Shown: positions 4,384 through 56,031, counted from the first letter of the stretch. The stretch is DNA of 64,000 bases from Phoronis australis (GCA_002633005.1 NMRA01000828.1:66450-130449), one strand, 5' to 3'. The notes: generated by a model not told the origin, from the sequence alone. Program-made: numbers and translations.

Positions 4384-5082
4384 AAATTTCGGCTCCATGT
4401 TGAATTGTCGAACGAGGCTCTGATGGTCGTATGTCATTTTGAACACACCGATTCTCAGAATACAATACCAAAGCACGTTCATGAATCGCTGAGTAAATGT
4501 CATGTTTTGACCGACTGGGTTCAAAATTGAAACCATGTATGACGGATGGTAAGGCAGCTCGCGAGTTTCCATTCTTCTGAAGAAATCGTGCGGCATGAAT
4601 TCTACGGCTGGTACATCACCTAATATTCTTTGTATCCCGTACTTACAAAATAAAATTGCATTGTAGTAAACCAGCTCAAAGTTTTCTGCCTTGAGCCTTG
4701 AATGAGTCTTTGTTGAGTTGAGGAACGACTCGCAACTGGCAAGAGGCATTTTCATTACGTTGGCTGCGGTTGTCAACTCATGGTCCATGATATCCCGAAG
4801 AGAGAACGTGTGCAGTAAGTCCTGTGGTAGTTTGGTGGATCTAGGATAAGTTATTAACGTCACGCCAGCTTTTCTAAGGAATGCAGGTGGTTGGTATCCG
4901 TTGTCAGCAAGAACGTAAACATCGTGGCCGTGTTCTGCAATCATTGCAAGGATTTTTTCGTCATTCCTCAATGCGGAATTTCGAGCAAAGGTGAGAGGAC
5001 ATCCTAAAATCTTTGCCGCCGCAGATTTTGCCGTGTTGTTTAGCAACACAAAGACAACGACAATTAAAAACCGACAACTCAT
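4384..5082 (-). CDS. UGT: UDP-glycosyltransferase gene A, exon 1 (signal peptide + acceptor-binding domain); joined product 512 aa
   Basis: ATG at 5082 (MSCRFLIVVVFVLL signal), AKIL..., GHDVYVL, PSY and MTFTQRFMN motifs. Phase-0 donor AAATTT|GTAAGT at 4384. Confidence 0.9.
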
Positions 5083-10378: not shown

Positions 10379-11111
10379 TACATATATTCAGTGCCCTGTA
10401 TGCTATCTTTCACTCTAATTCAAACTGGAGAGCGTCTGGTGACTTTCTTTAGTAGAACGTGTTGTGTGGACGGCACTTCATAGTGTACCAGTGCACTTAG
10501 GGGGCACACTCTGTTTTAGGGCAGAAAAGCACATCTTTGGACCATTGTTGGATAGGATAGGCGTCTTGAAGTAATTTGTTTTGACTCAAGACGTATAGAA
10601 CAACAAAATCCATTGTATTATTGTGATGTTGTTGCAAATTGGCATTGAATTCTCGCGTTGGCTGCCAGTCCTTTGTTTTAAGTTGAGGCCGGCGACTTTA
10701 TCAGTACAATTACGCTTCGCTAGCACAGCGCCGATTTGGAACCGCTGGGGTTTTGTGTTCGATTCTGTCTTGGAGCAAATCTTAAAAACAAACTTTCTCG
10801 ACTGTGTACTCAGTGTTCACTGATTCTTACATTAATAACTGAATAAGCGAACAAGTTTCAACGTATTTTTGTGTTTTCAAGTTTTGTTTCCAAGTAGATG
10901 TGTGTTTTTGTTTTGTTAGGCTACAACACTTCCGACTTGCATAGCCACAACAACAAAACACACAATGAATAGCATACTGTCAATCCATGATGACAAATTC
11001 AAATTTTATTTTTGCTGGCGCTAATGGGCTTTCGTACCAAAAACAGTTCAGTGGCCTAAAAATGAAATGGGAATTTTCACTACGAAACACGCATGATAAT
11101 TAGTGACCAGT

Positions 11112-11948
11112 TTATTCTCGTTTTTGTTTCGTACGGCTACAGCACTTCCGACATGCATAGCCACAACATTTGAACAAAACAAAACACACAATGAGTAGAA
11201 TGGAGATCAAAAATGCTAAAACATCAAGTGAATAAAACTGGTACCAAGTCAAAAATCGGCCATAAGGTTTCAGATGCGATATACCTTTATGTCGAATCAC
11301 ATAATCGACCCAGTAAAGGAACAGATCCTTGCCACTGATTGGTTGATCATTTAGATATTTAGCTAAGCGCACAGCATTTTCTTTGTACATTGGATTAGAA
11401 ATAACTTCAGTCATGGCTGACGCAAGAGAGTCTGACGTCATAGATTGGAATTCCACATGAACACCGATCTTATGAGATTTCGTAAGTCTCGCGGCATTTT
11501 GCGGTTGGTCACTGAATAAAGGCAAAGCTATCACCGGTACACCAAACATTACAGTTTCATACATACTGTTCTGACCACAATGTGTAATAAACAACTTGGT
11601 TTTATGGTGAGCCAAAAGTCCCGTTTGTGGAAACCATTTGACTAACTTCGTGTTTTTTCCCAGTGTTTTAGGCGTTGGTCCTTCGTACTTCCACAGAACC
11701 TTTTGCGGCATTCGCGCGAACGCTTCGGCGATCAAGTTGCCGTTGTGTTCATCATACTCCGTTATCATTGATCCAAAACTCATAATAATTAAACCGTGAT
11801 CTCCTGAGCTCTGAACGAAGGCCTCGATGTCTGACTCCAGAGGTTTTGGCTTAGCAGCAAGAATCCCGTTTAAATGCACGACGTCCGGTAATTTTGGCGC
11901 TGGGTACTCCAGTGGAAATCCTCCGAAAACAAGTGCAAGACTTTCGGG
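11112..11948 (-). CDS. UGT: UDP-glycosyltransferase gene B, exon 2
   Basis: UGT signature WFPQTGLLAH...THCGQNSMYE...DQ, TM helix, KQKRE tail. Phase-0 acceptor TTGTTTCAG|CCCGAA. Confidence 0.95.
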   Translation of the reverse strand, partial: PESLALVFGGFPLEYPAPKLPDVVHLNGILAAKPKPLESDIEAFVQSSGDHGLIIMSFGSMITEYDEHNGNLIAEAFARMPQKVLWKYEGPTPKTLGKNTKLVKWFPQTGLLAHHKTKLFITHCGQNSMYETVMFGVPVIALPLFSDQPQNAARLTKSHKIGVHVEFQSMTSDSLASAMTEVISNPMYKENAVRLAKYLNDQPISGKDLFLYWVDYVIRHKGISHLKPYGRFLTWYQFYSLDVLAFLISILLIVCFVLFKCCGYACRKCCSRTKQKRE

Positions 11949-12454
11949 CTGAAACAATGATAAAGTTTGGGGACTATTCCAATTATTTATCTTCTTATCC
12001 ACACCGTTGTAGGAATGGTTATTTATTATCATTACTTATCAGATGGAAAAGACAGTAGTCAACTATCAAGTATGTTAGCCTACGTGATTGAATAGGATAT
12101 TTTGTGCCACGCATCGGAGCGACGTGCGAAACAATTCCATTCGTGCTGGTATAAAAATGAAAATGCCTGAGGTCATTCAAAATACCAGAAATTTATGTCA
12201 GTTTTCACAAAATATTTGGCCACCACCCGCCGAGGACAGGTCGAAATTAACTGAAACTTATATGAAGGCTATATGACCCGCTGTTTTGAGATTGGCCTAG
12301 GAGCGTTACTAAAGCTATTGCATCTTTTTTCAAAAGCTCGAAAACATTCCACAAAACATAAAGAAGAACTCTGTCAGTTGGCCTATCATACAAAACACGA
12401 ACCAATGCTTAATATACGCATGAGCCCTTTTAAAAACTCTTCAATTATACTAAC

Positions 12455-13180
12455 CTGCTTTGGTTCAATTTTGTACTTCCTTGCCAGTTGGCGGTAGTCG
12501 TAATCCATTAATTTGCTCAAAAAACAATATGAATAGGCAGTTATCATGAAATTCACAACTCGCTCCAAAAACAACATTTCTTGTCCCACGTGATATACAT
12601 TTATGGGAAGGTATGAGAATGGTAAAGGCAGTTGTCGATCTTCAAAACGTCTCATCGTGTCGAAAGCAAAATATTCTACGGAAGGGATGTCTCCGAAAAC
12701 ACCTTGAATCACTATTTTACACATAAATAGCGAGTTGTAATAGACCATGTCGAATTTCTCGCGTCTCAGTCGATCGTGAATGATGGACGAACTCGCAAAC
12801 GACTCGCATATTTTCAAAGGAATATCGAGCATAGCCAACACAGATTTCATTGCACTCGTTGTCATATTGCGAAGTGGAAACCTGTGCTCGTTGACTGGTA
12901 GGCCCTTCGGTCTTGGTACTACAATCAATTTTATGCCGGCTTCGGTGATAAATTGTGGCGGTTCATAACCGCTGTCGGCTAGAATGAAAACTTCATGACC
13001 TTGCTTCGCCAGAATTGCTAAGAGCTTCTCGTCATTTCGCAGACTTGAGCTCTTAATAGCTGTCAATGGACATCCTAAGATCTTCGATGCTTCCCCCTCA
13101 TAGCTGGTCACGTGGAATAAAAAGAGTAAGAAGCCAAGGAACCATTGTGGACTTGTCTTAGTGTGACCTGACCTCCCCAT
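12455..13180 (-). CDS. UGT: UDP-glycosyltransferase gene B, exon 1; joined product 520 aa
   Basis: ATG at 13180, signal peptide, SKILGCP, GHEVFIL, MLFLERVVN. Phase-0 donor AAGCAG|GTTAGT. Intron is 506 bp. Confidence 0.92.
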
Positions 13181-14065
13181 GGTTTTATGACGTATGCAAG
13201 TGATCCAGCATTAGGCAGAAATAAGCCATCTCTTATACATGTTATACACACACACAATCTATAGCTGCACTCTATTCCTTTGTGTACACTGTACTCCCGT
13301 GACCAAAGTACACGGTGGATGTCCCACAATAAACGGGTCACTTTGTCACAGCATATGAAAGGCCAACCCGAGAATCGACGTCAGTGCTCAGGTGCTTAGG
13401 ATTTATGCAAGCATGTCCGCGACTAATGTCATCTTCTGATAAACTTGCCAGGTAACCTCAACGTTGAGGAGACGCCACCATGATCAACTGTGGGCTTTAG
13501 AAGATACGCTAGATTCATTAACACCATCGAATCTTCAGTCACAAAGGCCATCTTTGAATGAGTAAAACCCACTTCAACATTTTTGGTTTTGCAAAATCTT
13601 CAAATGCAAGGCCCATTCGTGTTTTTAAAATTTGGTTTTGAGATTCTTCCCGCGAACTCAGAGCTTTTGTCATTTCTTGACAGTAGGGAAATGGAGCAGA
13701 GCACTAAAGTAGAATTTTTGTTAGCGTGTCAATGAATCATTTCACACTGGAAGTGTTTTGCATCATCCAGAGGCTTCTTACTCAACTTGAATTGCGTAAC
13801 TGCGCGCTATCAGAAATCGGAGTAGTTTACTTATGATAATAAGGGGACCAGACAGGACAAACCCGAAAACTGAAAAACGCCGTCATGAGAATATGTTTGT
13901 TTTCAAGAAATTATTGACAGCATTACAGACCAATCATGAAGTAATGTTAGCAAAATTTCGGGTAATTCAACAAAAACTTAGTTTACAGCGAGAATTAAAT
14001 TTGAGAAGGTATCCCAGTGCACACCTTTAGGATGTGAAGTTCAGTTCAAAAACAAACGCATGAAG

Positions 14066-14269
14066 AGGCGGATCTACGGGGGGGGGGGGTTCATGGGGTT
14101 CAACCCGCCCCCTCGGGACAGGATAAAAATATGAATTAAAAAAATGTCGTCAGGAAAACAATATCGGCTACAAAATAACCAAAAAAATCTTACACGTGAG
14201 GGGGGAAATCCCCTCCCGACCTTCGCGTGAATCCTAAACCCCCTTACTGAAAACGTAGATCTGCCACTG
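14066..14269. mobile_element. MITE of the CAGTGGCGGATCTAC...GTAGATCYGCCACTG family
   Basis: GGCGGATCTAC-G-run left end and GTAGATCTGCCACTG right end. Homologous to copies at 24536-24708 and 57953/60220. Confidence 0.75.
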
Positions 14270-16313
14270 GACGAGCTAGTACGGCTAGAAATCAACATAC
14301 ATGCAATATTCCAGGCGCAACTAGAATCGTATATGTTTAAATTATAAAGCTGATATGAAATCACCTTTTAATATGCTAAAACTGAATTTATAAGTTCACA
14401 ATACCGGCTTATTCTAAGTAAATAGACAGAACACGAGCACAAGTCACTATATTGTCAGGAGTACATAATCAACTGTCGCTTTTGAAAAACTGAATGAGCA
14501 TATTTATTGAAATTATAATTTCCAGATGATTGGTAAACGTTGATTTTTCCCATTTACTTACTTGTGAAAAATCGCATCGTTTGTGTTTGATATATCATAA
14601 TATTCTGGCATTTCTTCATGAAAATCTTGCATTTAGCAAGAAATAAACCCCGTCTTTAACCCAGTACACAAAATACACTGTCTTCTTATTGAATCTACCA
14701 ACCTCAGCTCTAAATTGCGTGCCAAGAATCCTGGAACAGTGATTATACAGTTACGTCATAAGCTGTGTATGTTGTCGGAAAGGCGCCTCTGGCGCTGAAT
14801 ACTGGTACTACTTTTTAAAAATACTCGTTCCGCTTCGTGTTAAAAAAAAATCATAGAACGGATTTTAATGTAAAATAGTTCAGTCGAAACTTAACCCCAG
14901 ATAATATTCATCCAACACAACCAATGTTCGAAAAACACGCTGACCCGGTTTCCCGGAGCCAGTGGATTTGCCGCCGGGCCAGTAACTTTCAAAAGAGCAT
15001 GGCACCCGGGCTTGTTAATCTTCAGACTAACTTGAGCGGTTGGCCAGCACATTTATTTGCTGAAGTTGAAACACTGAACACAACACCAAATAGTCTCTAA
15101 CTTAACTGAAATGAATATTAATTTTTAGTTTAATTTTTATTTTTGGTCACTGTAGTGAGTGACAGCTTGGTCATGTATTATGGGTACTCACTCAATTGTC
15201 GCCATAGCAACTGTCGCCATAGGTAATGAGGTTTCTGTAGAAACCCCGCCCTCTTTTAAAAAAATTCAATGAAATAAGGCAAACACAAAAACAGGACTGA
15301 AAGTTACGCAACGTTTATATTTTAGTGATGTCTTTCGACTGTGTTCTAAATTGGTGAACGTAAAATAGAGATTATCTTTAAAGTTTTGTTGTATTTCAGA
15401 AATTCATTGAGCACAAAATCCCTAAGCACTATTGACTATTTTTGTAATTTAGGACGTCATCACCTCAGCAAAATTCGAAATTACTTTCTTTACTTTTTGC
15501 TCTAAAGTGAGCAATTCTTGTTTTATCCCGTGGATCTCTATTATGAACCATTTCTACAATAGTCAACATACACTGTTGTTCACTATACAGCCAAGACTGT
15601 AGTTCACTTAGGTAAAACTAGGAACAAGCCAAAAAGGTAGGAACATTTGGCACTTGTCGTTGAAGCCTTTAGGAACCTCTTGCTGAAAGAAAAGACGTGC
15701 TAGCAGTTTGGTGCTACATTTTTTAACCGCCGACTGCACACAGTTACAGTGTATTGTGCAATCCTGTTAATCTGTTTAGAAGCAAGTTTTCTCTAATCGT
15801 GTTTTGAGATATTTTAGTTTTGTCCACCACGACTAACCATGTACTATCTTCATGACACTTTCTTAAAATATTTACCCGCACACGCACGCGCGCTGACGCG
15901 TGTGCATGTAGTAATCATTTACACAGTAACAGGTAGCTAACATGTTATTTCTGCGGAGTGTAAATACTGTAACCCCACTTTATGTCACGAATTCGTCATT
16001 ACGCTTGTCTTTACGTCCAAACTACAATGGTTTTGCATGTTGGAACACGTGCGCTTTCACATTAGCGTTGCTAAAATTGATGGTAAAATGAAGCATTGTG
16101 TCCCCCAAACAACAATGCACAACATTCATTCTTGCAGAGCCACCAAAGTGAGCAAGTAGTGAATAAAACCAGTGTTCCGTCAATTTTTTTGATTTAGATC
16201 ACCTACCAATGTAAAATTGGTTTCAATTTTTCAATTTGTTCCTCACTCATATTGGAAGAAATTCCTGGGTTTGCAAAGAGACAAGTTGTTATGCCTTTAT
16301 TCCATGATCGGCG

Positions 16314-16398
16314 CATGAAACGACACCTCGTGACAAACCAACCCATGAAACGACCTCGTGACAAACCAACGCATGAAACATCTCGTGACAAACCAACT
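16314..16398. repeat. Short tandem repeat, about 28-bp unit x3 (CATGAAACGACCTCGTGACAAACCAAC)
   Basis: Seen directly. Confidence 0.8.
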
Positions 16399-17382
16399 GG
16401 TACATTACGGTCTCAAGCAAAGGCGAGGTTCTTCCGAAGCCTTGAAATCATCTCGAATATAGCTGAGGAACAATCTGAGACCAGTTAGGTGGTAATTCAA
16501 TTTTCTTCTAATGAAAGGCGGTTTCTTGTGTGGTTTTAGTTGTAAAATTTACAATAAAGCTACAATTCGCCAGTTTAAATTTGGATGATCGTGGTAATGT
16601 TCTTTTAGTCCAAAAACACTTTGGTTAGAAATTCAACACTGACAGGTAAACAGTGACGAAAGGTCCTTTTAAAGAATGTTGTGGAAATCGCATGTCAGTC
16701 TATCAGCGAAAGTTCAAAGGAACATTATTGGCTAGAGATCAGCTTAGGTGCGGAAACGACGTTGAACCCCAGCCGTCGCAGCCGAACACTTTACTTCTGG
16801 CGGGGTTAAATCCCATTCCACTCTATTGACAGCAGATAATTTCACTGGTAAGTGAAAGCCTGGTACGAGATAACGATGAGAATTGGCGTATTGTAATTAA
16901 ATCACAAGCTACAACGGATTTTCTTGTCAATGCTAACCAACAAGTGCAACAGTGTGATTACTGATATAACGTGCCTGTATTTTGAGAACCAGTTTGATGC
17001 CCGTTATTCAGAGGAAAAACTGGTTCTCAAAACTCGGGCACGTTGCACCAGGCCATTACCTCCAACAAGTCTACCTCAGCTAACAATAAGCCCAAAATGC
17101 ATATTCGGCAGTAAAACCGATGATGTTCCTTGATGTATAAGTTGCATATGACAATAATTTGTTCCGGTTTCTTTTCTATTGTCTATTTGTATTGAGCATC
17201 TTCGACAGTCAATCCGTAATTACAATTTGATAATCCCCAATAGCATATTGTCAATCCATGATGACAGATTCAAATTTTATTTTTGCTGGCGCTAATGGGC
17301 TTTCGTACCAAAAACAGTTCAGTGGCCTAAAAATGAAATGGGAATTTTCACTACGAAACACGCATGACAACTAGTGACTAGT

Positions 17383-18219
17383 TTATTCTCGTTTTTGTTT
17401 CGTACGGCTACAGCACTTCCGACATGCATAGCCACAACATTTGAACAAAACAAAACACACAATGAGTAGAATGGAGATCAAAAATGCTAAAACGTCAAGT
17501 GAATAAAACTGGTACCATGTCAAAAATCGGCCATAAGGTTTCAGATGCGATATACCTTTATGCCGAATCACATAATCGACCCAGTAAAGGAACAGATCCT
17601 TGCCACTGATTGGTTGATCATTTAGATATTTAGCTAAGCGCACAGCATTTTCTTTGTACATTGGATTAGAAATAACTTCAGTCATGGCTGACGCTAGAGA
17701 ATCTGACGTCATAGTTCGCAAGTTTACCTCAACACCGATCTTGTGAGATTTCGTGAGTCTTGCGGAATTTTGTGGTTGGTCACCAAATAAAGGCATAGCT
17801 ATCACCGGTACACCAAACATTACTGTTTCATACATACTGTTCTGACCACAGTGTGTAATAAACAACTTGATTTTAGGGTGTGCCAAAAGTCCCGTTTGTG
17901 GAAACCATTTGACTAACTTGGTGTTCTTTCCCAGGGTTTTTGGCGTTGGTCCTTCGTACTTCCACAGAACCTTTTGTGGCATTCGTGCGAAAGCTTCGGC
18001 GATCAAGTTGCCGTTGTGTTCATCATACTCCGTTATCATTGATCCAAAACTCATAATTATTAAACCGTGATCTCCTGAACTCTGAACGAAGGCTTCGATG
18101 TCTGACTCCAGAGGTTTTGGCTGAGCAGCGAGAATCCCGTTTAAATACACGACGTCTGGTAAATATGGCGCTGGGTACTCCAGTGGAAATCCTCCGAAGA
18201 CAACTGCAAGACTTTCGGG
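17383..18219 (-). CDS. UGT: UDP-glycosyltransferase unit C, exon 2 (candidate shared/constant exon)
   Basis: Same length (837 nt) as gene B exon 2 and near-identical to it. Phase-0 acceptor GATTTCAG|CCCGAA at 18220/18219. Confidence 0.95.
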   Translation of the reverse strand, partial: PESLAVVFGGFPLEYPAPYLPDVVYLNGILAAQPKPLESDIEAFVQSSGDHGLIIMSFGSMITEYDEHNGNLIAEAFARMPQKVLWKYEGPTPKTLGKNTKLVKWFPQTGLLAHPKIKLFITHCGQNSMYETVMFGVPVIAMPLFGDQPQNSARLTKSHKIGVEVNLRTMTSDSLASAMTEVISNPMYKENAVRLAKYLNDQPISGKDLFLYWVDYVIRHKGISHLKPYGRFLTWYQFYSLDVLAFLISILLIVCFVLFKCCGYACRKCCSRTKQKRE

Positions 18220-21200
18220 CTGAAATCATAAGAACACAATGTATGTTTGACAGTAGTTCATGATCGCCTTTCACCAATTTCAATCCCACAAGGGAAACAT
18301 TTTTGCCCTTTTTTGAACGTAGTTGATCCGAAGAGATCCGAGATCCATTTCAGGAAATTGACTAAAGATTCAAGACAAAATTTTGGTCTAGCGCTCTCGC
18401 TTCACTATTCCCGGAAAAAGTTTGCCAAGTAATTATGAGCATCACTGTCTAGAACTAATTTATAAAAGTTATCTCAGAAACTAGCTATTACGTGGACATT
18501 CTCAGAAACATTTGAGATTTACATGTAATCATATTCCAGAAATGTTGTGTGGAGCGCAAGACCAAATTTCAACTTGTTTTAAATGTCACTTTTCATGAAA
18601 CAGATTGCAGAACAGCAAATTTTGTCTTATTTATCATAGTGTTGGATTGAGTTAAAAGGAAACAAAAATAGTCTAAAAACAGATAATCAAAGAAAATACG
18701 TCATTGGGTTGAAGCTAGAGCAAGCAAATGTTAAAACAATAGAAGCCGCGGCCTGTAATGAGTATCAACAATCAAACACCAGGAGTGTAGCATCGCAGGC
18801 CCAGTTACGGAGATTGCTATGATTCGGCGGTATTCTCCAACATGGCTGGTATAAACTGATCATTCTTTCTCCATGGAGAATGTCACTATTCTAGATAGGG
18901 AAGAAAACTGATTCAGGCGAGCAATATATGAAAGCGTGGAGAATCCCACTTTAAACAGACAAGGGCGCCTGAGATTTCTGTTACCAAGAACTTGGGATAG
19001 GGCCCTAAAGAGTATCCTGCACAAACTGTGCTATCGTTCACATGATCGAGTCACGTGACACCTCAGTGGCCTGCCGAAGGGCTCGAGATGAGCACGCAAC
19101 GCTTACCCAATCCGCAATTCCAGTAATTGATTTATTTTTTCATGTAAGGCTTTTTGTTCTCATAAAATGGGCAGAGTCTCCCCTTCCTTACCATGATAGG
19201 ATTCCATTTCCACAAACAATAACATGGAAACTATCAGCAACTCAAGAAGTTTACTGGGATTGGCTAACCCTAAAATTGCTAATTCATTCGAGAACACCGC
19301 GAGGACACATGGCTTGCGTCTTTTGTTGCCGGCTCAATCGGCAGCAATTCAATGCTTTAAAACCTCAGAGCGTTTCAGATAAAAACACAACATTCACTGC
19401 TAAAAAGTAGTGAAAAGCAGCTTTAACTAAACAAGCACAGGAACGTCATCAAATCGTGTTACTCATTAGATGTGAGTCACCAGATGGCAAGACCGCGTCT
19501 ACTCCACTAGTCAGCCCACCCCAAGAAATGCCAAACAACGTAAGTTGATGTAAAAGATGAAGTCGTAAGCCTACTTTTTTCGTCTGAAAATTCATCATGT
19601 GGTAACATGTGGCTCTATAATCTTACCAGATCCAAGTAAGATAATACACTAGTGTTGTCAGAACAGTTATCGAGTCAATTTGAAAGGATGCTCTGGAGCA
19701 CCTTTCCTACTAAACCTAAGCCTGGTGAAGAGTCGTTCAGGGTCGGGGCCCACTGGCAATTCGAGGCTAAGGCTTTGGTTATCACTACCACAGTCTACGA
19801 CCGTCAGAGGAGAGCGCAGATTTGCAGATCTTCACTGAAATACTCAGAAAAGACGTCGCGATGTTTAAAAAATTATCCCTTCAATGAGAAAACGAGTATT
19901 CATTAACAGGCAAACCCTTAGGTTTTAAACCCAACATCATTTTAATGCCGGCGTTAGTGGGTAAAGTTGGCAGTCCGTCATTTACCATCATTGCCACAAA
20001 ACAACTTGACGTTGTTACGCAGAACGTTCTTCACAGCAGAGGCAGCTGACGGGGCAATGGCCTCTTGCTCATTGCAAAAGGAAGCCCATCTTAGGTCGAG
20101 CAGCTTATAGATTGTGTCTGACTGCAACTTGAAGCTATGCCCATGGAAAAGAAAGAATAACAAGCAGTGGAGTGTGCTTCGTGCCATTATGGTAATTTCA
20201 GTCGTAGAACTTCGTCAAGGCGCCGGAGTAAACCGAGCAGTGCCAGATTCAGGTTTCTCGGTGCCCTTCAGCTATTATTAGTCTGGGGACCCAGTTATTG
20301 TTCACTGCCCTTGTCGCCATAATTTTCACCCCGTCCGTCAACAAATTTTAGACCAACATCCTGCTCGCAACTTTTTTTACCGCCGGTCTCCGGATCAACA
20401 GTATTTTGAAATTACCCCATCCCTTGGGTACCACAATTTTCAACCCTCCATTCGGCACAATTCATACCTACGTTTCGCGGTCAATGCAACCCTCGAAATG
20501 CGCCCCTCCCCGGGGGCCCCTAGCCTAGGTTATCCGGCACTGAATTTCACCTAAAACTGAGAACTGTCTTATGTTGTGGCAGTTGATCGCGCAAGTCCAG
20601 TCGCTCGCCAAGCAATTTTAAATAAAAATTCTCAAACTCTCAAGTTGCACGACTTCTTTCAACAGAAAACAAAATGATTGTCGTCAGATGACGCATCATA
20701 AAGGTTAGGTGCATCGCTGCATCTTCCTCTTCTTGAATCGACTTACATCGCAGGACACAACCTAAGAATATTATGAAGCCTGCCATCTGGCGACAGCTTC
20801 ACGAGAGTTCGTCATTGATGTTTCACTCTAGCTAGTTCCGACTCGATCACCGCATCGTTTTCGGGAACTCTGATTTATTTATCTCTCAAGACTACCTGGA
20901 ATACGCCCAGTAAAGTTTTACAGAAATGTAAAAAGCAAGGCCAAAAGAAAACAAAAATTGCACAAGGGTCAGTTTTTCGGAAACGGATATCTGCATCTGG
21001 AAACAGTTGGAGTCGTATGCAGTGGAATTATACATGGAAAAGCAAAAAGTGGAAGGTTGAAAAAAGTTAAGGGTCATAACTTCCTTTTTTATCCTTGGTT
21101 GTACGGAATGGGCTCGAGCACAGCTTAGCAACACGTAAACCAAAGCAGTTCATTCGCAAGAACTCTGACACAACTGGAATTGAATGGGAAACGTACAGTA

Positions 21201-21606
21201 TAACATATATGTGGCACTTGCTACAATCTAAGACTTCCATCATACGGTGTCACATACCTTGTGGCCAAAGATGCCCGTTTCCGCCCATCCCAGCCCGTTC
21301 TATAATAATATTTGGACGTGCTTGGACGTTTGTGGGACACACTGGCAGACTCATTAACAGAGCCCAGAAAGTCAATGCGGGTGAGACAGCTCTAGGGCAT
21401 TATCTTAACGTTCCAACCAGAAGGAGCAACACCGATACCTGCTTCCCCACAATTATGACCTGACAGTTTTGATATTTCACTTAAGACAGAAACAACGGAA
21501 AATCCAACAAACGTAGCTCCAACAAATTATACTGACTTATCGAGTCAGCGTTTAGGTAGACACAAGGACCTGTTCCACCAAGCCAGATATTAAGTGGGAC
21601 GCTACA

Positions 21607-21677
21607 CTCGCTGGTTCCCTGCGTGCTTAGCCCAGCCAGCTACCGCCCCATCTAGCGGCACGCAGGGAACCAGCGAG
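21607..21677. mobile_element. 71-bp mini-MITE with a 10-bp target-site duplication
   Basis: CTCGCTGGTTCCCTGCGTGC...GCACGCAGGGAACCAGCGAG is a 20-bp perfect inverted repeat, flanked on both sides by GGACGCTACA. Confidence 0.8.
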
Positions 21678-21704
21678 GGACGCTACACTACATGTATAAC
21701 TGAC

Positions 21705-22372
21705 CTCTTTCGGCTCAATTCCGTACTTCCTCGCCAGTTGGTAGTGGTCGTATTCCAATTTAAACATAAAAGCATACAGCAACGAAACCATCACAAAGTT
21801 CACAGTTCGCTCCAGAAAAGACATACCCTGCCCTGCGTTGTATGTATTGGCGGGAACGTATGAGGGTAATAGAGGGAGCTGACGATCTGCCAATCGTCTG
21901 GTGGAGTAGTGAACAAAATATTCCATGGAAGGGATGTTTCCCAAAACACCCTGGATTACTAATTTACAAAAATACAAGGAATTGTAATAGACCAGGTCGA
22001 ATTTCGTTCGCCTCAGTCTGTCATGAATGTCAGTAGAGTTCGCAAAAGACTGGCAAATCTTCTTAGAAGTATCCAACATCGCCATCAGACCCTGCAGTGG
22101 ATTACTTGTCAAATTCCAGAGAGGATACCTGCCGGCGTTGGACGACAGGCCTTCCGGTCTCGGGACTATAATCAGTTTTATGCCGGCTGCGGTGACGAAT
22201 TTTGGTGGCTCGTAACCACTGTCGACCAGAATGTAAACTTCGTGACCATGCTCAGCCATCATGGTCAAAAATTTCTCGTCGTTTCGCAGAGCTGAGTTCT
22301 TAACCGCCGTCAGTGGACACCCGAGGATCTTAGCTGACTCTCCCCTGTGGTTGCAGGCGTCGAATACAAACA
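21705..22372 (-). CDS. UGT: UGT unit C, first exon variant C1 (open frame; 5' end cut by the assembly N at 22373)
   Basis: AKILGCPLTAVKNS...GHEVYIL...MSFLERTVN. Phase-0 donor AAAGAG|GTCAGT at 21705. Confidence 0.85.
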
Positions 22373-22373
22373 N

Positions 22374-22494
22374 AACTTGTTCCAAAATACTTAAGTTTTC
22401 GCCAAAAACTTAAGTTTTCGGGAATGAAAACTTAAGTTTTTCAGACCAAAAACTTAAGTTTTTCGATGAAAACTTAAGTTCATTTTTGTAAGGG
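22374..22494. mobile_element. End of a non-autonomous DNA transposon (CMC/EnSpm-like terminus) with palindromic AAAACTTAAGTTTT subterminal repeats, inserted in a UGT exon
   Basis: Five ACTTAAGT palindromes ending in CATTTTTGTAAGGG (reverse complement CCCTTACAAAAATG), directly abutting exon sequence. Confidence 0.65.
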
Positions 22495-22976
22495 ATGGAA
22501 GGGATGTTTCCCAAAACACCCTGGATTACTAATTTACAAAAATATAAGGAATTGTAATAGACCAGGTCGAATTTCATTCGCTTCAGTCTGTCATGAATGT
22601 TAGTAGAGTTCGCAAAAGACTGGCAAATCTTCTTAGAAGTATCCAACATCGCCATCAGACCCTGCAGAGGATTACTTGTCAAATTCCAGAGAGGATACCT
22701 GCCGGCGTTGGACGACAGGCCTTCCGGTCTCGGGACTATAATCAGTTTGATGCCGGCTGCGGTGACGAATTTTGGTGGCTCGTAACCACTGTCGACCAGA
22801 ATGTAAACTTCGTGACCATGCTCAGCCATCATGGTCAAAAATTTCTCGTCGTTTCGCAGAGCTGAGTTCTTAATCGCCGTCAGTGGACACCCGAGGATCT
22901 TAGCTGACTCTCCCCTGTGGTTGCAGGCGTCGAATACAAACAGTAGCCACACTGGCAGTTCCGTTAAGCAACGCAT
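22495..22976 (-). pseudogene. UGT: Second copy (probably the other allele) of UGT exon C1, 5' part, interrupted by a transposon
   Basis: ATG at 22976 (MRCLTELPVWLLFVF). Near-identical to about 21925-22372, with about 7 substitutions counted by eye. The frame runs into the repeat after GNIPS. Confidence 0.8.
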
Positions 22977-23329
22977 CTTAAATCCGCGATGGTACGTTGA
23001 CCCAGTCACAATATAATGTGTACGGCAGACAACTAGCTGTAATTTGCACCGTGAAAACAGCCAGTATACGCACATATGTAGGTCAAACAGATTCGCTTGG
23101 AAAAACTCGTATTTCATCGAAAAAAACTAAATTTAGATTTAGATCACTGGTCCTCGGCCATTCCTTCCTCAAATTAGAAGTGTCTTTGTGTCATGTAAGA
23201 AGTGAGAGTTTCTTTAATTTTTCCTCCAAACCATGCTCAGCGAATAAAATAAATTGCCGTGTTAATTTGTTCATTTCGCAAAAACTCTGCGAGGCAAGTG
23301 GGCGTCAGCGAAGTGTTTGAACTATCGCT

Positions 23330-23550
23330 GGCCAAAATTTGGGCGAACGTTGCGCACCCGTTAAATTACTTGCGTAAATTAACTTTAATAAATAAATAAT
23401 TAATTTACACCGTAAAGAATTAATTTGCATCGTAAAGAATTAATTTACAACGTTAAAAGTAAATTTACACCTTGCAAAATAATCAATTTACGTCGCGAAT
23501 AATTAATTCACGCCGTTAATTATCGTTGGCCATATGGGTGAACGTTAGTG
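23330..23550. repeat. AATTAATTTAC-rich repeat element; related copy at about 44790-45060
   Basis: Repeated TAATTTACA/C units bounded by GGCCA..TGGGYGAACGTT motifs at both loci. Confidence 0.55.
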
Positions 23551-24347
23551 TACAAAATATCGAGAAATAAGGACCCAAAGAAACGTCCCTTAGGAGTAAC
23601 AGCCTTTCGGAGTAAGTTGAGAAGTCCTTCAGAGTAAAGACCTAGACCCCTGAAGTGGCGGCACCGGGTTTTCTCACTACATACAGTTGGCACTTGGCAC
23701 TCCTGAGTTAAAGTGGACTCACTACTGGTAGAAAACAAATTTGAGGTGTGGTGACAGTTTTGAGGTATGCATTTTGAATATGCTGTGGGTCGGAAAAGTC
23801 TGCTAGTTCACCAGAAGACTTCAGTTTTAAAAAATGGCAGCTTCCTATAGTAGTATTCCATCACGCATAGTGGACAGTGACAGCCTTCGCTGCGAGTTCA
23901 GGTTAACCCTCAAACAACACAGAACAGCACAAATGTGATTGGATCAAAACTTTTGGACCACATTAATTGTGGAATATATAGTAAATTTACACTCGGGATC
24001 TAGTGTTCGCTCGTGTGGTAGTTGGGCTGAAAGTGTGTCCCCATTGCTGCCGCTTTGGATTATGACGAGTTGATTAAGACTCTTCGCCATGCATTACATC
24101 TATTTTACCAGCTGCGAACAGTGTTACACTATAATTCTTCTCACGAGCTAAAATGAGTTGTTAATGAGGACTATGTGTTTCGACGGAAAGGAGACGAACT
24201 TCTGAAACCTAGTAAACTGTGGCCTATGTTAGCTGTGACGCCTGGTATCATTGGAGGGTCACTAAAATCTCAATATACTCATATATACTGTACATGTAGG
24301 TCTGTCCCTGAAAAACCGCAATCAACAAGTGGATCCTTTGCACTAAC

Positions 24348-25030
24348 CCGTTTTGGTTCAACGCCGTGTTTTCTCGCCAACTGGTGGTTGTCCCCAATGC
24401 ACCTTATTCCAAATACACATATAAACGAGGTCATCAAGAAATTCATGCTCCGCTCCAAAAATGACATTTGATAACTATTCATGGAGAGGTACGAGAACGG
24501 GAGAGGTAGCTGTCGATCTTCCAAGCTTCTGAGCGCAAAGGCGGATCTACAGGGGGGCGGGGGGTATTCAAGGAGTTCAACCCCCCCTCAGGACAGGATC
24601 AAAAATAAAAATTGAAAAAAAAAACACAAAAACCTTCCTTCCGCTCGGCGCGTCGGATTCGTTCGAATCCTAACCCCCCTTACTGAAAATGTAGATCTGC
24701 CGGCACTGGAGCGTGTCCCTAGGAAAAAAAACTCCACTGAAGCGACGTCACTCAAGACAACTGAAAAAATAAATGTCGACCACAGACATTATTGTAGTAA
24801 AAGCATTGTCTGTTATATTACGAAGTGGAAACCTTGTTCGTTTGCTGGTAGTCCCTTCGGTCTGGGAGTAACGCTCAGTTTAATCCCGCCTTTTGTGACG
24901 AATTTTGGAGGTTCATAACTGCTGTCGGCTAGAACGATAACATCGTGACCTTGAACCGTTATCATTGCCAACTTATCGAATGTTTCGGTGGAAATCGTGC
25001 AGTCACCGTCAGTCATAGCCAAGATGTCGC
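24348..25030 (-). pseudogene. UGT: Degenerate UGT first exon (C2), a paralog of exon C3
   Basis: Fragments GHDVIVLADSSYEPPKFVTK and DRQLPLPFSYL...MSFLERSMN...HGVEPKR, with deletions, frameshifts and a MITE insertion. The downstream intron start is nearly identical to that of C3. Confidence 0.9.
24536..24708. mobile_element. MITE (CAGTGGCGGATC family) inserted in the UGT pseudo-exon, 5-bp TSD GAGCG
   Basis: GAGCG|CAAAGGCGGATCTAC...GTAGATCTGCCGGCACTG|GAGCG. The uninterrupted paralog has a single GAACG at this site. Confidence 0.8.
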
Positions 25031-25656
25031 AAGAAGCCACATTGAGTTATGCAGCCTTTCTGTGTCAAGGTTTTGTCCTTTGGTTTATTACGCAAAATTA
25101 ATATTTCCCAAGAAAAAAAAAACAAGTCAGTAGCCGCCCCCAAACCTGCATTAGCTCCTATCCCACTGAGGGACTGGCTCTGTATAACTGAAGAGCTGAC
25201 GACAGCTGAAGGTCATCCCATCTGGTTGGAAAAACGAATTAGGCCTACTCCTCTCGGGAAGCATTTTACTCGCAAAAACGTACAGAGTTTTCATTATTTC
25301 ACCTCGGTGACGGAAATCCATGCGTTTATAGTTGGAAAAATACCTCCGTAAAATACAACATTGGGAATTTAGTTAAATAAGTATTTACGATGACTGATTC
25401 ATTGGGACCTATTCTGAACTTTCATTGGATAGCCTCTGTTATAAAAATTTTCAGGGCGAGAGATGGTTTGCAACCCCTGTGACAGAATGAAGTTCACGTT
25501 ATTTGAAATGTTATTTTAAGTTCTTGCATTTTTTAGAAAACTCATAAAAGGCGTTGTTTTTTCTAGACTATCACAAGTTTGTGACACACAGCAATTTGAT
25601 CATAGCGTGCAGTTTTCTAATCTAATTCATTTTCAGTCGAAAAAGAGCAATACTGT

Positions 25657-26056
25657 TGCTGTGCGTAAACTTGGAATCCTGGTTAATCTCAAGATCGCGT
25701 ATGCGTGAACTTGGAATTGAATCCTCATTAATTTTGAGAATTTTTTGTTCAGCGTAAAGAACTTTTGTAATTATTGGCCTCATTATCACCCATCTTCTCC
25801 TTTAGCGTAACTTGAGTCAAAGAATATCAGAAAATGTTTGTTTAATCAATTATTGTTTGCGGTGGATAAGATCGCCCACAATTGAAAAAGGATTGGATAA
25901 AATTTACGTTATTTTGTCAACATATTATTCGATTTAGTGCAATGCAAATTTTTATCAAGGTGAACGTGATTATTTGAGTGAAGTTGTCGTGTATTCCAAG
26001 TTCACGCATACGCGATCTTGAGATTAAGCAATATTCCAAGTTCACGCACAGCACTG
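25657..26056. mobile_element. MITE with roughly 60-bp terminal inverted repeats; another end of this family at about 45083-45150
   Basis: TGCTGTGCGTAAACTTGGAATCCTGGTTAATCTCAAGATCGCGTATGCGTGAACTTGGAAT and its inverse at about 25994-26053. Confidence 0.75.
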
Positions 26057-26207
26057 TCACCTCGGAGGGGTACAGCGACAAACCAATACTGATGCGAAGC
26101 GTCACCTAGTGAGCATGAATAACAATAACTTCAATGTACCCATGAAAATGAAGAACCCGGTCTGTCCCTGAAAAACCGCAATCAACAAGTGGATCTTTTG
26201 CACTAAC

Positions 26208-26921
26208 CTGTTTTGGTTCAATCCCGTGTTTTCTCGCCAACTGGCGGTGGTCATAATGCATCTTATTCCAAACACCATACATAAAAGAAGTCATCAAGAA
26301 ATTCACAGTTCGCTCCAAAAATGACATTTCCTGTCCTACATGATAAAGATTGATGGGGAGGTATGAGAACGGGAGAGGTAGCTGCCGATCTTGCAAGCGT
26401 CTGAACGTATCAAAAGGAAAATATTCCACTGAAGGGACGTCTCCAACAACAGCCTGGATCACTATTTTACACACAAATGCTGCGTTGTAGTAGATCATGT
26501 CAAATTTCTCACGCCTCAGTCTATCATGAACCTCTGACGAATTCGCAAACGCTTCGCATATCTTTAAAGGAATGTCAACCACAGACATCATAGTTTGAAA
26601 TCCATTGTCCGTCATATTACGAAGTGGAAACCTGTGCTCGTTTGCTGGTAGTCCCTTCGGTCTGGGAGTAACGATCAGTTTAATCCCGGCTTTTGTGACT
26701 AATTTTGGAGGTTCATAACCGCTGTCGGCTAGAATGAAAACATCGTGACCTTGACCCGCCATCATTGCCAACATCTTCTCGTCATTTCGCAGCGCCGAGT
26801 TCTTAATCGCCGTTAAAGGACATCCCAAGATCTTTGCTGCTTCCACATCAAAACTGGTTGCATACCACACAAAGAGTAACAAGCCAATTGTACCCCGGAG
26901 ACACGTGGTTGAAACAGCCAT
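26208..26921 (-). CDS. UGT: UGT unit C, intact first exon variant C3 (238 codons; no private exon 2)
   Basis: ATG at 26921 (MAVSTTCLRGTIGLLLFVW signal), AAKILGCP, GHDVFIL, MSFLERTVN. Phase-0 donor AAACAG|GTTAGT at 26208. Confidence 0.9.
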
Positions 26922-27552
26922 GGTTGTGAACACACTGTGAAGTGTGAGCTAAGCGACAGTATACACACACCTGCACTTTGCCCTTTCTGTGTTGTGTCTA
27001 CAGGGTGAATCAAAAACGCCAAGCTTAGGTAACGGCGGCGGTACTGTAGAAACATGTCACCTTTAGAAAATGACTCCGTTTTACAGATTTCCAGTGGCTA
27101 ATTCAGTGGGATACTCTAAATGAAAAATACACCGTTTGAAAAAAACAGGTAGCTGGTGTAACATACCGGATTTCGATAAAAATTCATATGAAATCGGAAC
27201 TTCAGAAATTAGCCAAGATCGAACTCGTAAGATTTTATTCGCAGTAACGGAAACGCCGATTAGAACAACAGGGGGGGCAATATTACAATCGAACACGCCT
27301 CGGTGGAAAATCACGCAAATTAGTCATCCTCAGTTGGTCAGCATTGCTAAGTTCTCACCTGGCGGGCCATGCAAAGAGCGCTTTCAGCATGCAATGTCTG
27401 GGTCGACCCCTATGGTCACAAATATGGACAGACTGATCATCAGTAAGATACAATCCGATTGCGACATACAGCTTTGTTTTATGCAAACATTAGTGGTGTT
27501 AAGTTTCCAAATAAAAGTTACTAACCAAGAGAGTATTAGGAGATATACCATG

Positions 27553-28307: not shown

Positions 28308-28880
28308 GCCTGAATTTATGTGTCGCATAGGCCTAGTTGGCAGCGCACATGACATAGTAATTTCATCAATCATCAGATTTGTAAAATACAACATCGGGAC
28401 CAGTAAAATGAATATTGAAGCTAGATGACTGATTCAGTGGGACTCATTTCCCGCACTTTATCGGATAGCTTGCTTGCAACCACTTCGGTCTCGGCGACTT
28501 CAGTTAGCTTGACTGCCAAGGCCGTGAACCGCGTCTCAAGATTTGTTTTCAGAGATTAGTAGGATATGTTTGAAATTGAAACATTCAAGTTGTTCTTTAC
28601 ACGAGTAGTACACAGCGACAAATGTTAGTTTTAGTCTAATTGGTTCCTCAGTTCAGCAAACAAGAACACGACGAGATGCGTTGCTTTCACTGAGCAAACC
28701 GAATGGCTCTATATCATAGAAGTTGACGTTTAACCCCATCTCAAACACGAAATAATTTTTACCTTTATCGTCCTTCCTTGATACAAAGATATTTAGCGTC
28801 TACTATTATGTGCCAGGCTTCATGGTTCACTGACACACGACGACCCCTAGCGAGACCAGTGTAATAACTTGCCAAGTTAA

Positions 28881-30193
28881 AGGCGAAGCCAACCTTTTTT
28901 CGTGACATTTTTAGCAAAAATAAGGTTCGTTGATTATCCCAGACATATTTTTCACTTATTTACTGCTTTTCGTAATTTAATTAATTACTCGTCGTATACT
29001 CCAGAAGTGACGTTTTGGGAGGCAAGAATTTCGCGCCAATTTTTTCATATAGTCTGCACAGTGAGAGCAGTCGAGTCAGTCATTGTTCTACTTCGGTTGT
29101 GATAAGTTCGGTCGTCGTTTGCTTTTGCTTACGAGTCAGTCTGGGGTGTACTCATTATAGTCTCACGTACAGAGGAAGAACTGTCCTACTTGCCCGAGTG
29201 TCCCGCGACACACTCCCACTGAAGGGTGATCTTAGCACCCAAACTGCTTACATCCCGCCGTGTGACTCCCTCGCCACACACCTGGCACCTTCCAAATAGC
29301 TCCAATACAAGTCCACAATAAACTTATCAAACTTAGGCTCACCGATCTCTTCATTGGATGACTTACTGTCCTCTTCACTGGGTGTCGAACTGGGCCTGTT
29401 TTCACTCCCGCTACTCAACATCGCTGCAGGGCTGCTTAATTTACAGGCTCTGGGCTAGAGACAACAGCACAGGTCGAATCACTGCTACTTCCCGGAATTG
29501 CACGCAATGGGGTACGTTCGGAGGCGGGTGACAGTAGATGAAGTGCCTCCAGTCACTGTATATAGTGGTCACAGCTCGCGAGGCTTCTCGCTTCAAAAAC
29601 GCACTTCTCGGGGTTTGCGACGGGGCACTGCCGGGAATCAACAGCGACGGTATGGTACCCTTCTTCAGGCGTTGTTTCGCCGGGACCTTCATCAATTCAG
29701 CGTACATATCTGTCATAATCTTAAGGCAGAAAATGCTTGCCACACACTCGGTAACCCTCCACTGCTTTGCACGTTGCGTGGGTGGGTAGCGCTGTGTTAT
29801 AGGCACATGAACGAGCTAGCCAAGTATGGCGAAGTGTGTCATCCTTCGGAAAGCGACGCAAGGTACCCAAATTAAGCGCGTGTGAGACGATAAAGAGTAC
29901 ATCCCGGCACGCAGTAACAGCGTGGCATGTTGACTGACTTGTAAACAAAAGCAAACGACGACCGAACTTATCACAACCGAGGTAGAACAATGACTGACTC
30001 GACAGCTCTCACAGTCAGACTATTTTATGAAAAGAAATTGGCGCGAAACTCTTGCCTCCCAAAACGTCACTTCCGGTGTAGAGGACGAGAAATTAATCAG
30101 ATTACGAAAAGCTGTAATTAAGTGAAAAATGTCTGGGATAATCAACGAACCTTATTTTTTCTAAAAGTGACATGAAAAAAGTTGCTTTCGCCT
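28881..30193. mobile_element. Kolobok-like non-autonomous element with long (about 240 bp) TIRs and a frameshifted THAP domain on the minus strand
   Basis: TTAA|AGGCGAAGCCAAC...GTTGCTTTCGCCT|TTAA. Internal peptides FPKDDTLRHTW, RVCGKHF and RLKKGTIPSL match the THAP consensus. Confidence 0.85.
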
Positions 30194-32181
30194 TTAAGAC
30201 TCGAACGCGTGTACTGGCAGCTGTAATACAGGGGTCATCAAGTGCAAACTAGGTCAGTTAATCGTATGCAGCAAAACCAAAGAAGCCATGCACATGAAAC
30301 TGAACTAGTAGACGGGCAGCCGTCTTACCTCTTGATCAGGTCGCCTAAGACAGCTGAACACAAGTAATGTACCCCTTCTGGAGGATCATCTATGATATGC
30401 ACCCATCCGAGTGGCCACAAGGGGAGTAAGGCCAAATCTATCTGAATTCAGGTACGTGTCGGCCTTTCTATTATACAAACTTTATATACCAAATTTCACG
30501 GAGACTCTGTCAGGACTTACTTGTACCGGTACGTACAAGTTGACGCACATAAAAAGATATTGTCGTTAGGGGACGCCACAGTAGTCGGCCATGCTTTCAA
30601 TGGTCCTCAAAAGGAACACTAGTCGGTGCCGATCGAAAATTCATGGATATTTTTCGTCGACAAAATTTGTAGATATTGAGGCAGACATCACTGAAAACTC
30701 CCACTAGAGGGCTCCACTAATTGAAAAGTTAATAGCCTCCGTCTTTGAATTTTTAAAATCGATGCATATCATAAGCGAAATTGTCAATAGATTTTTTCAG
30801 CATACGTGACAGATTTCTGTACTCAAACTGCCTCTGGTCATGAGCCTCAAAAAACCATCGATGCATGCACCGGCACTCGATTTTCTGGATGACGGCACAA
30901 CCATGTAACAAACATAATGTTTTATTACAGTGAGTGTTGAGGATACGAATAACAGATAGGTTTAAAGGCCTGTGGGTCCAGGCAGGATTGGATAACAAGG
31001 CATTTCTAAACTTTCACTGCTTGGTGTTCGGCAATCTATCACTTTCTGCTAATGTCAGAAATCAATTATTGTCCTGACCGGAAGATGTGAACCCAGTTTG
31101 TCAGAGTTGATCTGGTGATTTTGCCATTTTCAATCCAAAGTCATGAGTCAGAGGAAATTCCCTTTTAAGCAACCATGGAACTTACAGAGAAACTATCAAC
31201 ACTTCCAGCATCAAAGCCGAGACTCAAATTGTATTATACTAGCCCCTAAAGCCACAATATTTCTGTGTAAATGTCAGGCAATAGAACAGAGACTACATAC
31301 CATCCTGTGCAAAACAAATGTTTATAACCACGGTAACAGTAACAATTGCAAGTTAACCACAACTGCCTCCTAACCACAACAATAACGTCTACATACTTAT
31401 GCAACAAAAACATTATAAATAGCTTCCAAAATTCCGTCATCTTGAACATTGAAAAGTAGGCATTTCCTAAAACAATGGAGGAAAATTCCTGATTTCAATA
31501 AATGATGCACTTTGACCATCAGAACTGAGACTTAATGACGTCTTAAAAGTTGTTTGTTGAAATGAACAAAAACCTCTCAATTTCAACTGTTTTGGCTCCC
31601 ATTGCCTGATAATGAAATTATCCAATTAAATAGACCAGTAAATGAACCTACTGAGAACTGCATGGACTACGACTTCCAAATTTCAAAATGACTATTATAA
31701 ATATCAACAAAAAGTTTCACGACACAGTGATTTTTCGTAAATCTACCCATTACCAATAAGGAATGTAGGAAAAAGCCCTTGACACTCTGACAGTTTTGAA
31801 GTTATGGATACCATACTAACAAGTAATCTGTCTCATAGTTATCAAGACAGTAAACATATTACCAGTTCTGAACTAGGTGAACAATCTCCATCAAGTCTAT
31901 GAGCATCCTAAGTTAGGTCTAGAACCATCTCATCTAATAATAAATTAAAGAGAACGAGATGGCCAGTACAGTAAGGTACAATACATCAAAACATGGTATG
32001 GTACAGTATAGCATGTGACAAAAAATCTGAATATATTGCTGAATCCAAATCGAAAAATAGATAATAGATTCAGAACCACACCCATCACAACTTAAAAGCA
32101 TATCAGATCTGCTTTGAGGTAAGTAAAAACTATACAAACAGCAACACAATGAACTAACCCGCCTCCCCACCATCAGCATTG

Positions 32182-55837: not shown

Positions 55838-56031
55838 GTGTGACTGAGTGGAGTGTGACTGAGTGGAGTGTGACTGGTGTGGAGTGTGACTGATGTGGAG
55901 TGTGACTGAGTGNGGAGTGTGACTGAGTGGAGTGTGACTGAGTGGAGTGTGACTGATGTGGAGTGTGACTGAGTGGAGTGTGACTGAGTGGAGTGTGACT
56001 GATGTGGAGTGTGACTGGTGTGGAGTGTGAC
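55838..56031. repeat. 15/16-bp minisatellite GAGTGTGACTGAGTG with an internal assembly N
   Basis: Seen directly; N at 55913; degenerate units again at about 56110-56170. Confidence 0.95.

Follow-up and report, generated by a model that had tools for sequence, protein, structure and literature searches.

Vertebrates diversify the UGT1A detoxification enzymes by combining a shared donor-binding exon with alternative acceptor-binding first exons, and the question raised by the locus described here is whether a non-vertebrate animal uses the same design. The vertebrate UGT1A array includes pseudo-exons, and UGT1 has four constant exons, with an exon 1 encoding about 288 amino acids. According to PMC3325998 and PMC2819257, the tandem variable first exons of the vertebrate UGT1 locus possess their own promoters and are spliced to the common exons. 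The locus is located in a stretch of 64,000 nucleotides from Phoronis australis (GCA_002633005.1, NMRA01000828.1:66450-130449), hereafter the window, whose first 27 kb contain a minus-strand cluster of two-exon UDP-glycosyltransferase (UGT) genes (Pfam UDPGT). An earlier note, made from the sequence of the window, had proposed a UGT1A-like architecture in this cluster, with several first exons (C1, C2 and C3) and one shared exon 2 (exon 2 C), next to the conventional genes A and B. Our analysis makes it very probable that the cluster contains one minus-strand UGT unit with two intact alternative first exons, C3 and C1, both spliced to the exon 2 at 18219-17383, each likely transcribed from its own promoter.

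The inventory of exons, made by tblastn over the window, detected only three exon-2-like segments, one each for A, B and C, and exon-1-like segments in six places, of which four (C3, C2, C1 and a relic) are upstream of exon 2 C (Table 1). The E values of these segments ranged from 1e-30 to 1e-113, and the similarity is therefore not due to chance; Pfam places all of them in UDPGT (PF00201). A looser search for an additional exon 2 between the first exons (18226-26207; tblastn with a word size of 2 and E up to 50, blastn with a word size of 7) gave only noise, with a best E of about 0.5 on the wrong strand. The first exons end in a phase-0 donor in which EPKx is followed by GT: EPKF/GTAAGT in A, EPKQ/GTTAGT in B, EPKE/GTCAGT in C1, EPKR/GTTAGT in C2 and EPKQ/GTTAGT in C3, where the donor reads CAG/GTTAGT. 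The acceptors of exon 2 of B and C both read TTTCAG/CCCGAAAG, the one of the shared exon at 18219 being TTTCAG/CCC, and the 3' untranslated region (3'UTR) of exon 2 C extends to about 17239, with an AATAAA at 17281-17276. In C3 and in C1, the ATG is followed by a hydrophobic N-terminus, a putative signal peptide. The coordinates, the phase-0 EPKx donors, the own ATGs of C3 and C1 and the position of the nearest exon 2, all taken from the earlier note, were found as it had given them.

We investigated the use of these exons in RNA from four runs of two studies: three raw-read RNA-seq runs from one study (X2, X3 and X4) and an older run from a second study, available as contigs (X1). About 18-19 of every 100 reads of each raw run were sampled and mapped to 10800-27300 and then to 21660-23260, gene A being outside both regions, and the listing threshold for splice joints was 3 reads. 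The libraries are stranded, the first mate being on the plus strand for all coding reads, as expected for minus-strand genes. The joint 18219->26208, which connects C3 to exon 2 by skipping 7988 nt, was found in 18 reads of X2 (15 distinct starts), 12 of X3 (8 starts) and 10 of X4 (9 starts), and also in one X1 contig with a 22-letter anchor. The joint 18219->21705, which connects C1 to the same exon 2 by skipping 3485 nt, was present in 4 reads of X2 and 25 reads of X4 (20 starts), with none in X3 or X1. As a positive control, the joint 11948->12455 of gene B was carried by 2, 7 and 1 reads of X2, X3 and X4 and by no X1 contig. All three joints show CT..AC on the plus strand and thus GT..AG on the minus strand. 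The loose ends at the C1 donor matched positions 18190-18219 of the window at all 30 letters in X2 and at 29 of them in X4, and they did not match exon 2 of B, where two further letters differ. C3, whose RNA depth was 13-22 in the three runs, is thus transcribed and spliced to 18219, and with both junctions found the UGT1A-like design is borne out. The earlier note had considered that the C exons might also be spliced, in combination, to exon 2 of B; this was not recovered, as no joint 11948->21705 or 11948->26208 was seen in at least 3 reads; at the same threshold, no joint from C3 into C1 or C2 was listed.

Junction reads of this kind could in principle be artefacts, produced by template switching or derived from an unassembled paralogous locus, and the conserved paralogue sequence at the end of exon 1 and the start of exon 2 (EPKx/PESLA) could favour template switching. 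However, the cuts fall exactly at GT..AG in three libraries and one independent assembly, with 8-20 distinct starts each, and the use of the junctions follows the depth of the first exons across runs. The RNA reads match the window almost perfectly, with one fixed difference in C3 at 26602, and no cross-joints to B were listed, though B is equally similar at the junction. We consider an artefact extremely unlikely, the least credible of the alternatives weighed here.

The first exon C2 is dead. It has lost the first 150 nt or so, including the ATG and the signal part, its middle is replaced by unrelated sequence, and it contains stops and frameshifts; the blocks 24972-24772 and 24535-24299 are still 90% and 84% identical to C3, and the donor GT after 24348 is retained. 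Its RNA depth was 0 to 0.3 in all three RNA-seq runs and no joint was listed for it, in agreement with its earlier description as a pseudo-exon. We found also a relic first exon, absent from the first exons of the earlier note, which encodes 57 amino acids with one in-frame stop, is 40% identical to C3 residues 81-137 and has an RNA depth of about 0.

Table 1 Features of the UGT cluster of the window; strand "-" is the minus strand, "." means that no strand applies.
Feature	Position	Strand	Description	Evidence
Shared exon 2 (C)	17383-18219	-	278 aa + stop	acceptor of both joints; Pfam
C3, intact variable first exon	26208-26921 (coding, from the ATG)	-	238 aa, phase 0	open reading frame (ORF), RNA
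C1 first exon, 5' part	22495-22976	-	ATG 22976	ORF, RNA
C1 first exon, 3' part	21705-22372	-	donor GAG/GTCAGT after 21705	ORF, RNA joint
C2, pseudo first exon	24299-24972	-	decayed C3 copy	no RNA
Relic first exon	19806-19970	-	in C1-to-exon-2 intron	tblastn E 5e-7
Intron of C3 transcripts	18220-26207	-	7988 nt; holds C2, C1 and relic	
Intron of C1 transcripts	18220-21704	-	3485 nt	RNA joint
N and 121-bp tail in C1	22373-22494	.	N 22373; tail 22374-22494 of tandem palindromic AAAACTTAAGTTTT units	
Gene B, conventional two-exon neighbour	11112-13180	-	exon 1 13180-12455, exon 2 11948-11112	model and RNA joint
Gene A, more distant two-exon paralogue	2359-5082	-	exon 1 5082-4384, exon 2 3198-2359	gene model
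Exon-2-like segment A	2362-3213	-		tblastn
Exon-2-like segment B	11115-12035	-		tblastn
Exon-2-like segment C	17386-18225	-		tblastn
Exon-1-like segment A	4372-5070	-		tblastn
Exon-1-like segment B	12389-13210	-		tblastn
Exon-1-like segment C1	21699-22370	-	duplicate at 22374-22970	tblastn
Exon-1-like segment C2	24300-24971	-		tblastn
Exon-1-like segment C3	26109-26948	-		tblastn

Two further observations were made on the RNA data. The X1 contigs of exon 2 (17363-18219) differ from the window at 10 of 410 and 17 of 477 letters, the divergence being lower in the contigs of C3 (6/424) and C1 (4/219); one of the divergent exon-2 contigs keeps the C3 junction, and these differences may stem from an allele or a population that has diverged. 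At 14222-14269, 16961-17019 and 21607-21640, numerous RNA reads (30-90 per run) were located on both strands, with discordant loose ends. These read-rich stretches look like multicopy interspersed repeats; one is in the intron of C1, a little below its donor, and another below the 3'UTR of exon 2.

The window contains five single Ns, one of which, at 22373, is inside C1. The stretch 21925-22372 is 98.4% identical to 22495-22942 (7 mismatches in 448), the left copy stopping exactly at the N. An assembly collapse could be suspected here, in which each first exon would have its own near-identical exon 2, one of them hidden at the N or collapsed, so that the locus would consist of ordinary tandem genes and the C3 junction reads would merely map to the sole assembled exon 2. 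The single N flanked by the two 448-bp copies fits with such a collapse, as does the existence in the cluster of near-identical copies of exon 2 (B and C, 95% identical in DNA). The sequence, however, runs from 26208 to 22374 and from 22372 to 18219 without any N and without any trace of an exon 2, so that an exon 2 could be hidden there only if C1 existed as two paralogues. At the seven sites that distinguish the copies, X4 exhibited instead one and the same C1 sequence, with the letters of the right copy at 22006 (18/18 reads), 22012 (16/16) and 22031 (8/8), those of the left copy at 22545 (4/4), 22668 (11/11) and 22874 (30/30), and a seventh site which is left-type by read placement; two more X4 variants were identical on both copies (22035=22605 and 22154=22724). 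Since the one expressed C1 sequence is a concordant mosaic of both copies, as alleles give, the copies behave as recombining alleles of one exon and not as two paralogues. The sole place for an unassembled exon 2 is thereby removed, an exclusion which is indirect and comes from RNA reads, and there is no sign of the additional exon 2 at 22373 that would have refuted the earlier note.

Reads on the tail 22374-22494 lie on both strands and have differing continuations, which marks the tail as a multicopy repeat; in RNA it is never found connected to C1, and with its AAAACTTAAGTTTT units it belongs to a transcribed multicopy repeat family. At the boundary 22494-22496, every listed read group continues into unrelated sequence (14 in X4 with an agreement of 1, 8+5 in X2 and 6+5 in X3). 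The gap at 22373 is thus an un-merged overlap, either a contig end in junk sequence or a repeat insertion in one haplotype. The collapsed C1 coding exon (22976-22495 joined to 21924-21705) has 702 nt and encodes 234 amino acids with no stop. The C1 exon that had been placed at 21.7-23.0 kb is hence intact as claimed, its extent being too large because one exon is written twice in the assembly. In the 5'UTR of C1, at 22992, 16 nt upstream of the ATG, 18 of 27 X4 reads carried a 4-base deletion compared to the assembly, probably an indel polymorphism.

The reads over exon 2 point in the same direction. The exon-2 variants listed for X4 were all fixed (38/38, 52/52, 49/49, 51/51 and 50/50), though C1 and C3 were both expressed in this run, and X2 and X3 appeared heterozygous at four of these sites; the statements on RNA variants concern the 40 variants listed, of at least 130. 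These fixed variants favour one exon 2, with a support that is not complete. With the C1 copies behaving as alleles, we judge a collapsed set of ordinary tandem genes very unlikely.

The depth of reads also indicated where the transcripts probably start. In X4, the C1 depth was 21 at 22956-23009, 3 at 23010-23063 and 0 beyond; it thus ends 35-85 nt upstream of the ATG, with a probable transcript 5' end at about 23010-23060, and no joint from C1 to any upstream exon was listed. The C3 depth stayed at about 5 into the bin 26779-27300, above the ATG, and no joint upstream of C3 was listed either. The ratio of C1 to C3 junction reads was 25:10 in X4, 0:12 in X3 and 4:18 in X2 (Fisher p of 1e-5 and 1e-4) and varied more than 10-fold between runs. 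This shift of the ratio, together with the lack of an upstream leader junction, makes separate and separately regulated promoters of C1 and C3 likely, as judged from short-read depth.

Divergence was estimated as pairwise Nei-Gojobori synonymous divergence (dS) and its ratio to the non-synonymous one (dN/dS), in place of a tree. The first exons gave a dS of 1.44 with a dN/dS of 0.20 for C1 versus C3 (62% identical in protein), 1.07 with 0.26 for B versus C1, and 0.88 with 0.22 for B versus C3, compared to 0.16 with 0.16 for exon 2 of B versus C. By these estimates the first exons of B, C1 and C3 are old and under purifying selection, and their dS of 0.88-1.44 leaves the young origin proposed earlier without support for the first exons. 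One could then regard C3 as a by-product, the orphaned first exon of a gene without exon 2, whose read-through transcripts are spliced to the next acceptor with no function of their own. The dead first exons C2 and relic do show turnover, and the closer relation of C3 to B than to C1 fits former whole genes equally as well as it fits a duplication of exons. However, C3 is the dominant isoform in two of the three RNA-seq runs (18 versus 4 and 12 versus 0 junction reads), its frame of 238 codons is intact with a dN/dS of 0.22 versus B, and its junction is present also in the independent older data, where the exon-2 contig differs at 17 of 477 letters. A functionless by-product is thus highly unlikely in our view, and we retain C3 as a genuine alternative first exon of the unit.

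Exon 2 of B and exon 2 of C became alike much later than the split of the first exons. The tract 10968-11954 of B corresponds to 17239-18225 of C with 95% identical DNA; it starts at the acceptor and ends about 37 nt beyond the AATAAA, and directly after it in B a relic of an older exon-2 tail is present (10961-10905, with 15 of 19 residues identical). Probably the constant exon of C was copied over exon 2 of B. The tract has the limits of a mature exon, the acceptor at one end and roughly the poly(A) site at the other; this coincidence suggests an RNA intermediate, which is no more than a guess. C2 was copied from C3 alone, and its homology ends 49 nt into the intron; because the homology is limited to the exon and these 49 nt, a first-exon-sized duplication occurred within the unit.

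We examined then the proteins encoded. Exon 2 C covers positions 234-498 of the 499 of the Pfam UDPGT profile with an E of 2e-103, and the first exons match UDPGT with E values of 9e-8 (C3), 2e-8 (C1) and 1e-10 (B), all over the 19.5-bit cut-off. By hhalign, the four first exons matched the acceptor-binding half of UGTs from vertebrates and amphioxus with a probability of 99.6%. Exon 2 encodes the UDP-sugar-binding half, a C-terminal hydrophobic/transmembrane segment and a basic tail; its UDP-sugar signature reads FITHCGQNSMYETVMFGVPVIAMPLFGDQ and aligns with the same block of vertebrate UGTs, the motif being recognised with the pattern FxTHxGxxS..E..P..P..DQ. With the catalytic pair numbered as His35/Asp151 of UGT2B7, MAFFT and hhalign alignments showed that the His position is occupied by Ala in A, C1 and C3 and by Ser in B (S-A-L/S-S-L versus S-H-W), and the Asp position by Asn in A, B, C1 and C3 (Y-Y-N versus (A/S/M)-D-P). 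The catalytic pair is thus replaced, next to an intact UDP-sugar signature in exon 2 and a dN/dS of about 0.2. Human UGT1A4 and UGT2B10 are likewise without the catalytic His, but in the Phoronis proteins the Asp position is replaced as well, in all four paralogues. By homology the predicted products are members of the UGT family, but their use of the classical catalytic mechanism is not assured.

A HMMER search with the variable half of C3 over 1.84 billion cluster representatives found 27 hits with E<=1e-3 and none with E<=1e-30; the best hit (E 3e-19) was 34% identical over 93 residues, and the named hits were vertebrate UGTs. A word-based search of longer proteins found no close relatives of the C3 first exon, and an ESM Atlas search with it gave generic UGT clusters only. 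In sequence comparison, the acceptor-binding domain of C3 is thus close to an orphan. The constant half was 44-48% identical to the best single-domain matches listed (vertebrates, with amphioxus at 45%). With a constant half at most 48% identical, a variable half nearly without relatives and one constant exon in place of 4-5, orthology to UGT1 or UGT2 is therefore excluded, on identities and exon structure rather than on a tree.

In the mechanism that we propose for the unit, transcription would start just upstream of the chosen first exon. Each first exon offers a donor but no acceptor that is used, so that the 5'-most donor of the transcript would pair with the only acceptor downstream. Two separately regulated proteins would result, which share their donor domain and differ in their acceptor domains. 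The array would have grown by duplication of first-exon-sized pieces, and a conversion or replacement event would account for the near identity of the constant exon with exon 2 of B. Several points weigh against this view of the locus. The exon-2 depth only roughly equals the sum of the C1 and C3 depths (24 versus about 25 in X2, 19 versus about 14 in X3, and 43-49 versus about 55-60 in X4), and exon-2 variants of intermediate frequency may exist in X4 beyond the variants listed. The evidence against a collapsed or mis-joined assembly is only indirect, and the transcription starts are placed by the drop of short-read depth and not by mapped 5' ends. The whole ORFs are pieced together from short reads, so that the proteins are only predicted, and to name the products enzymes is an assumption given the replacement of His and Asp in four paralogues.

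The unit resembles the vertebrate UGT1 locus in that its first exons encode the (here putative) signal peptide and the acceptor-binding half and its shared part the UDP-sugar-binding half and the anchor, in the skipping of intervening first exons, in the presence of dead first exons in the array and in a use of first exons that varies by sample. It differs from UGT1 by one constant exon, two live first exons and an exon 1 of about 234-242 amino acids, by an identity of at most 48% in the constant half and by a variable half nearly without relatives. The exon 1/exon 2 boundary appears to fall near the position of intron 1 of UGT2. Insect UGT transcript variants were reportedly described by Ahn et al. 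in 2012. As there is no orthology to UGT1, the UGT1A-like design is likely convergent, and the sequences argue for a likely independent evolution of it here.

Other vertebrate clusters, described in PMC2819257, provide further parallels. Variable first exons with constant exons are reported there for UGT2A1/2A2 and for zebrafish Ugt2a/Ugt2b and Ugt1a/1b, and the Phoronis cluster resembles these by its few variable first exons beside whole-gene duplicates, here A and B. The constant region of vertebrate Ugt2 has five exons, in contrast with the one constant exon found here; for the single Ugt2b genes, six exons are given in PMC2819257. In zebrafish Ugt5a/5b, a common non-coding leader at the 5' side is described there as being spliced to alternative exons that each hold the whole ORF; alternative splicing ties one shared exon to mutually exclusive paralogous exons in both cases, but with opposite polarity, since in Phoronis alternative coding first exons are joined to a shared coding 3' exon. 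No variable-first-exon UGT locus outside vertebrates was found in the literature searched, which included PMC8450408, PMC8010143, PMC2633020, PMC1885805 and PMC13218726 and mostly did not extend to subscription journals.

A transcript-verified, non-orthologous example with a different exon count would show that repeated origins of the design are possible within the family, and the locus shows the process at a small scale, with two live and two dead first exons and conventional duplicates adjoining. We put forward tentatively, and as a rather doubtful extension, that a non-vertebrate animal has independently built a UGT1A-style locus in a lineage-specific UGT subfamily with near-orphan acceptor domains and a lost catalytic dyad. 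What the choice of first exon diversifies might then be a membrane protein that binds UDP-sugars in a non-classical or non-catalytic role. Between neighbouring units, the constant exon would be kept uniform by a replacement with the limits of the mature exon, a hint of RNA-mediated conversion. The replaced His/Asp pair makes both isoforms worthwhile for biochemistry. For annotation, gene finders would take C3 for an orphan fragment or join it up incorrectly, and the duplicated C1 at the N would be read as a broken gene.

Elsewhere in the window, Rfam and tRNA scans of its whole length found nothing. The other single Ns are at 46552, 54982, 55913 and 57989, the one at 55913 being within a GAGTGTGACTGA-type tandem repeat. 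On the minus strand, at 62178-63998 and open at the window end, a frame of 606 amino acids encodes a P-element/THAP9-type transposase with TNP-like RNase H and GTP-binding domains; its best database relatives are 50-55% identical and unnamed, and the nearest named ones are from gastropods (Batillaria and Plakobranchus, 41-49%). Two inverted repeats of 265 bp (28877-29141 and 29932-30197), 89% identical to each other and separated by about 800 bp, may represent the ends of a small DNA transposon.

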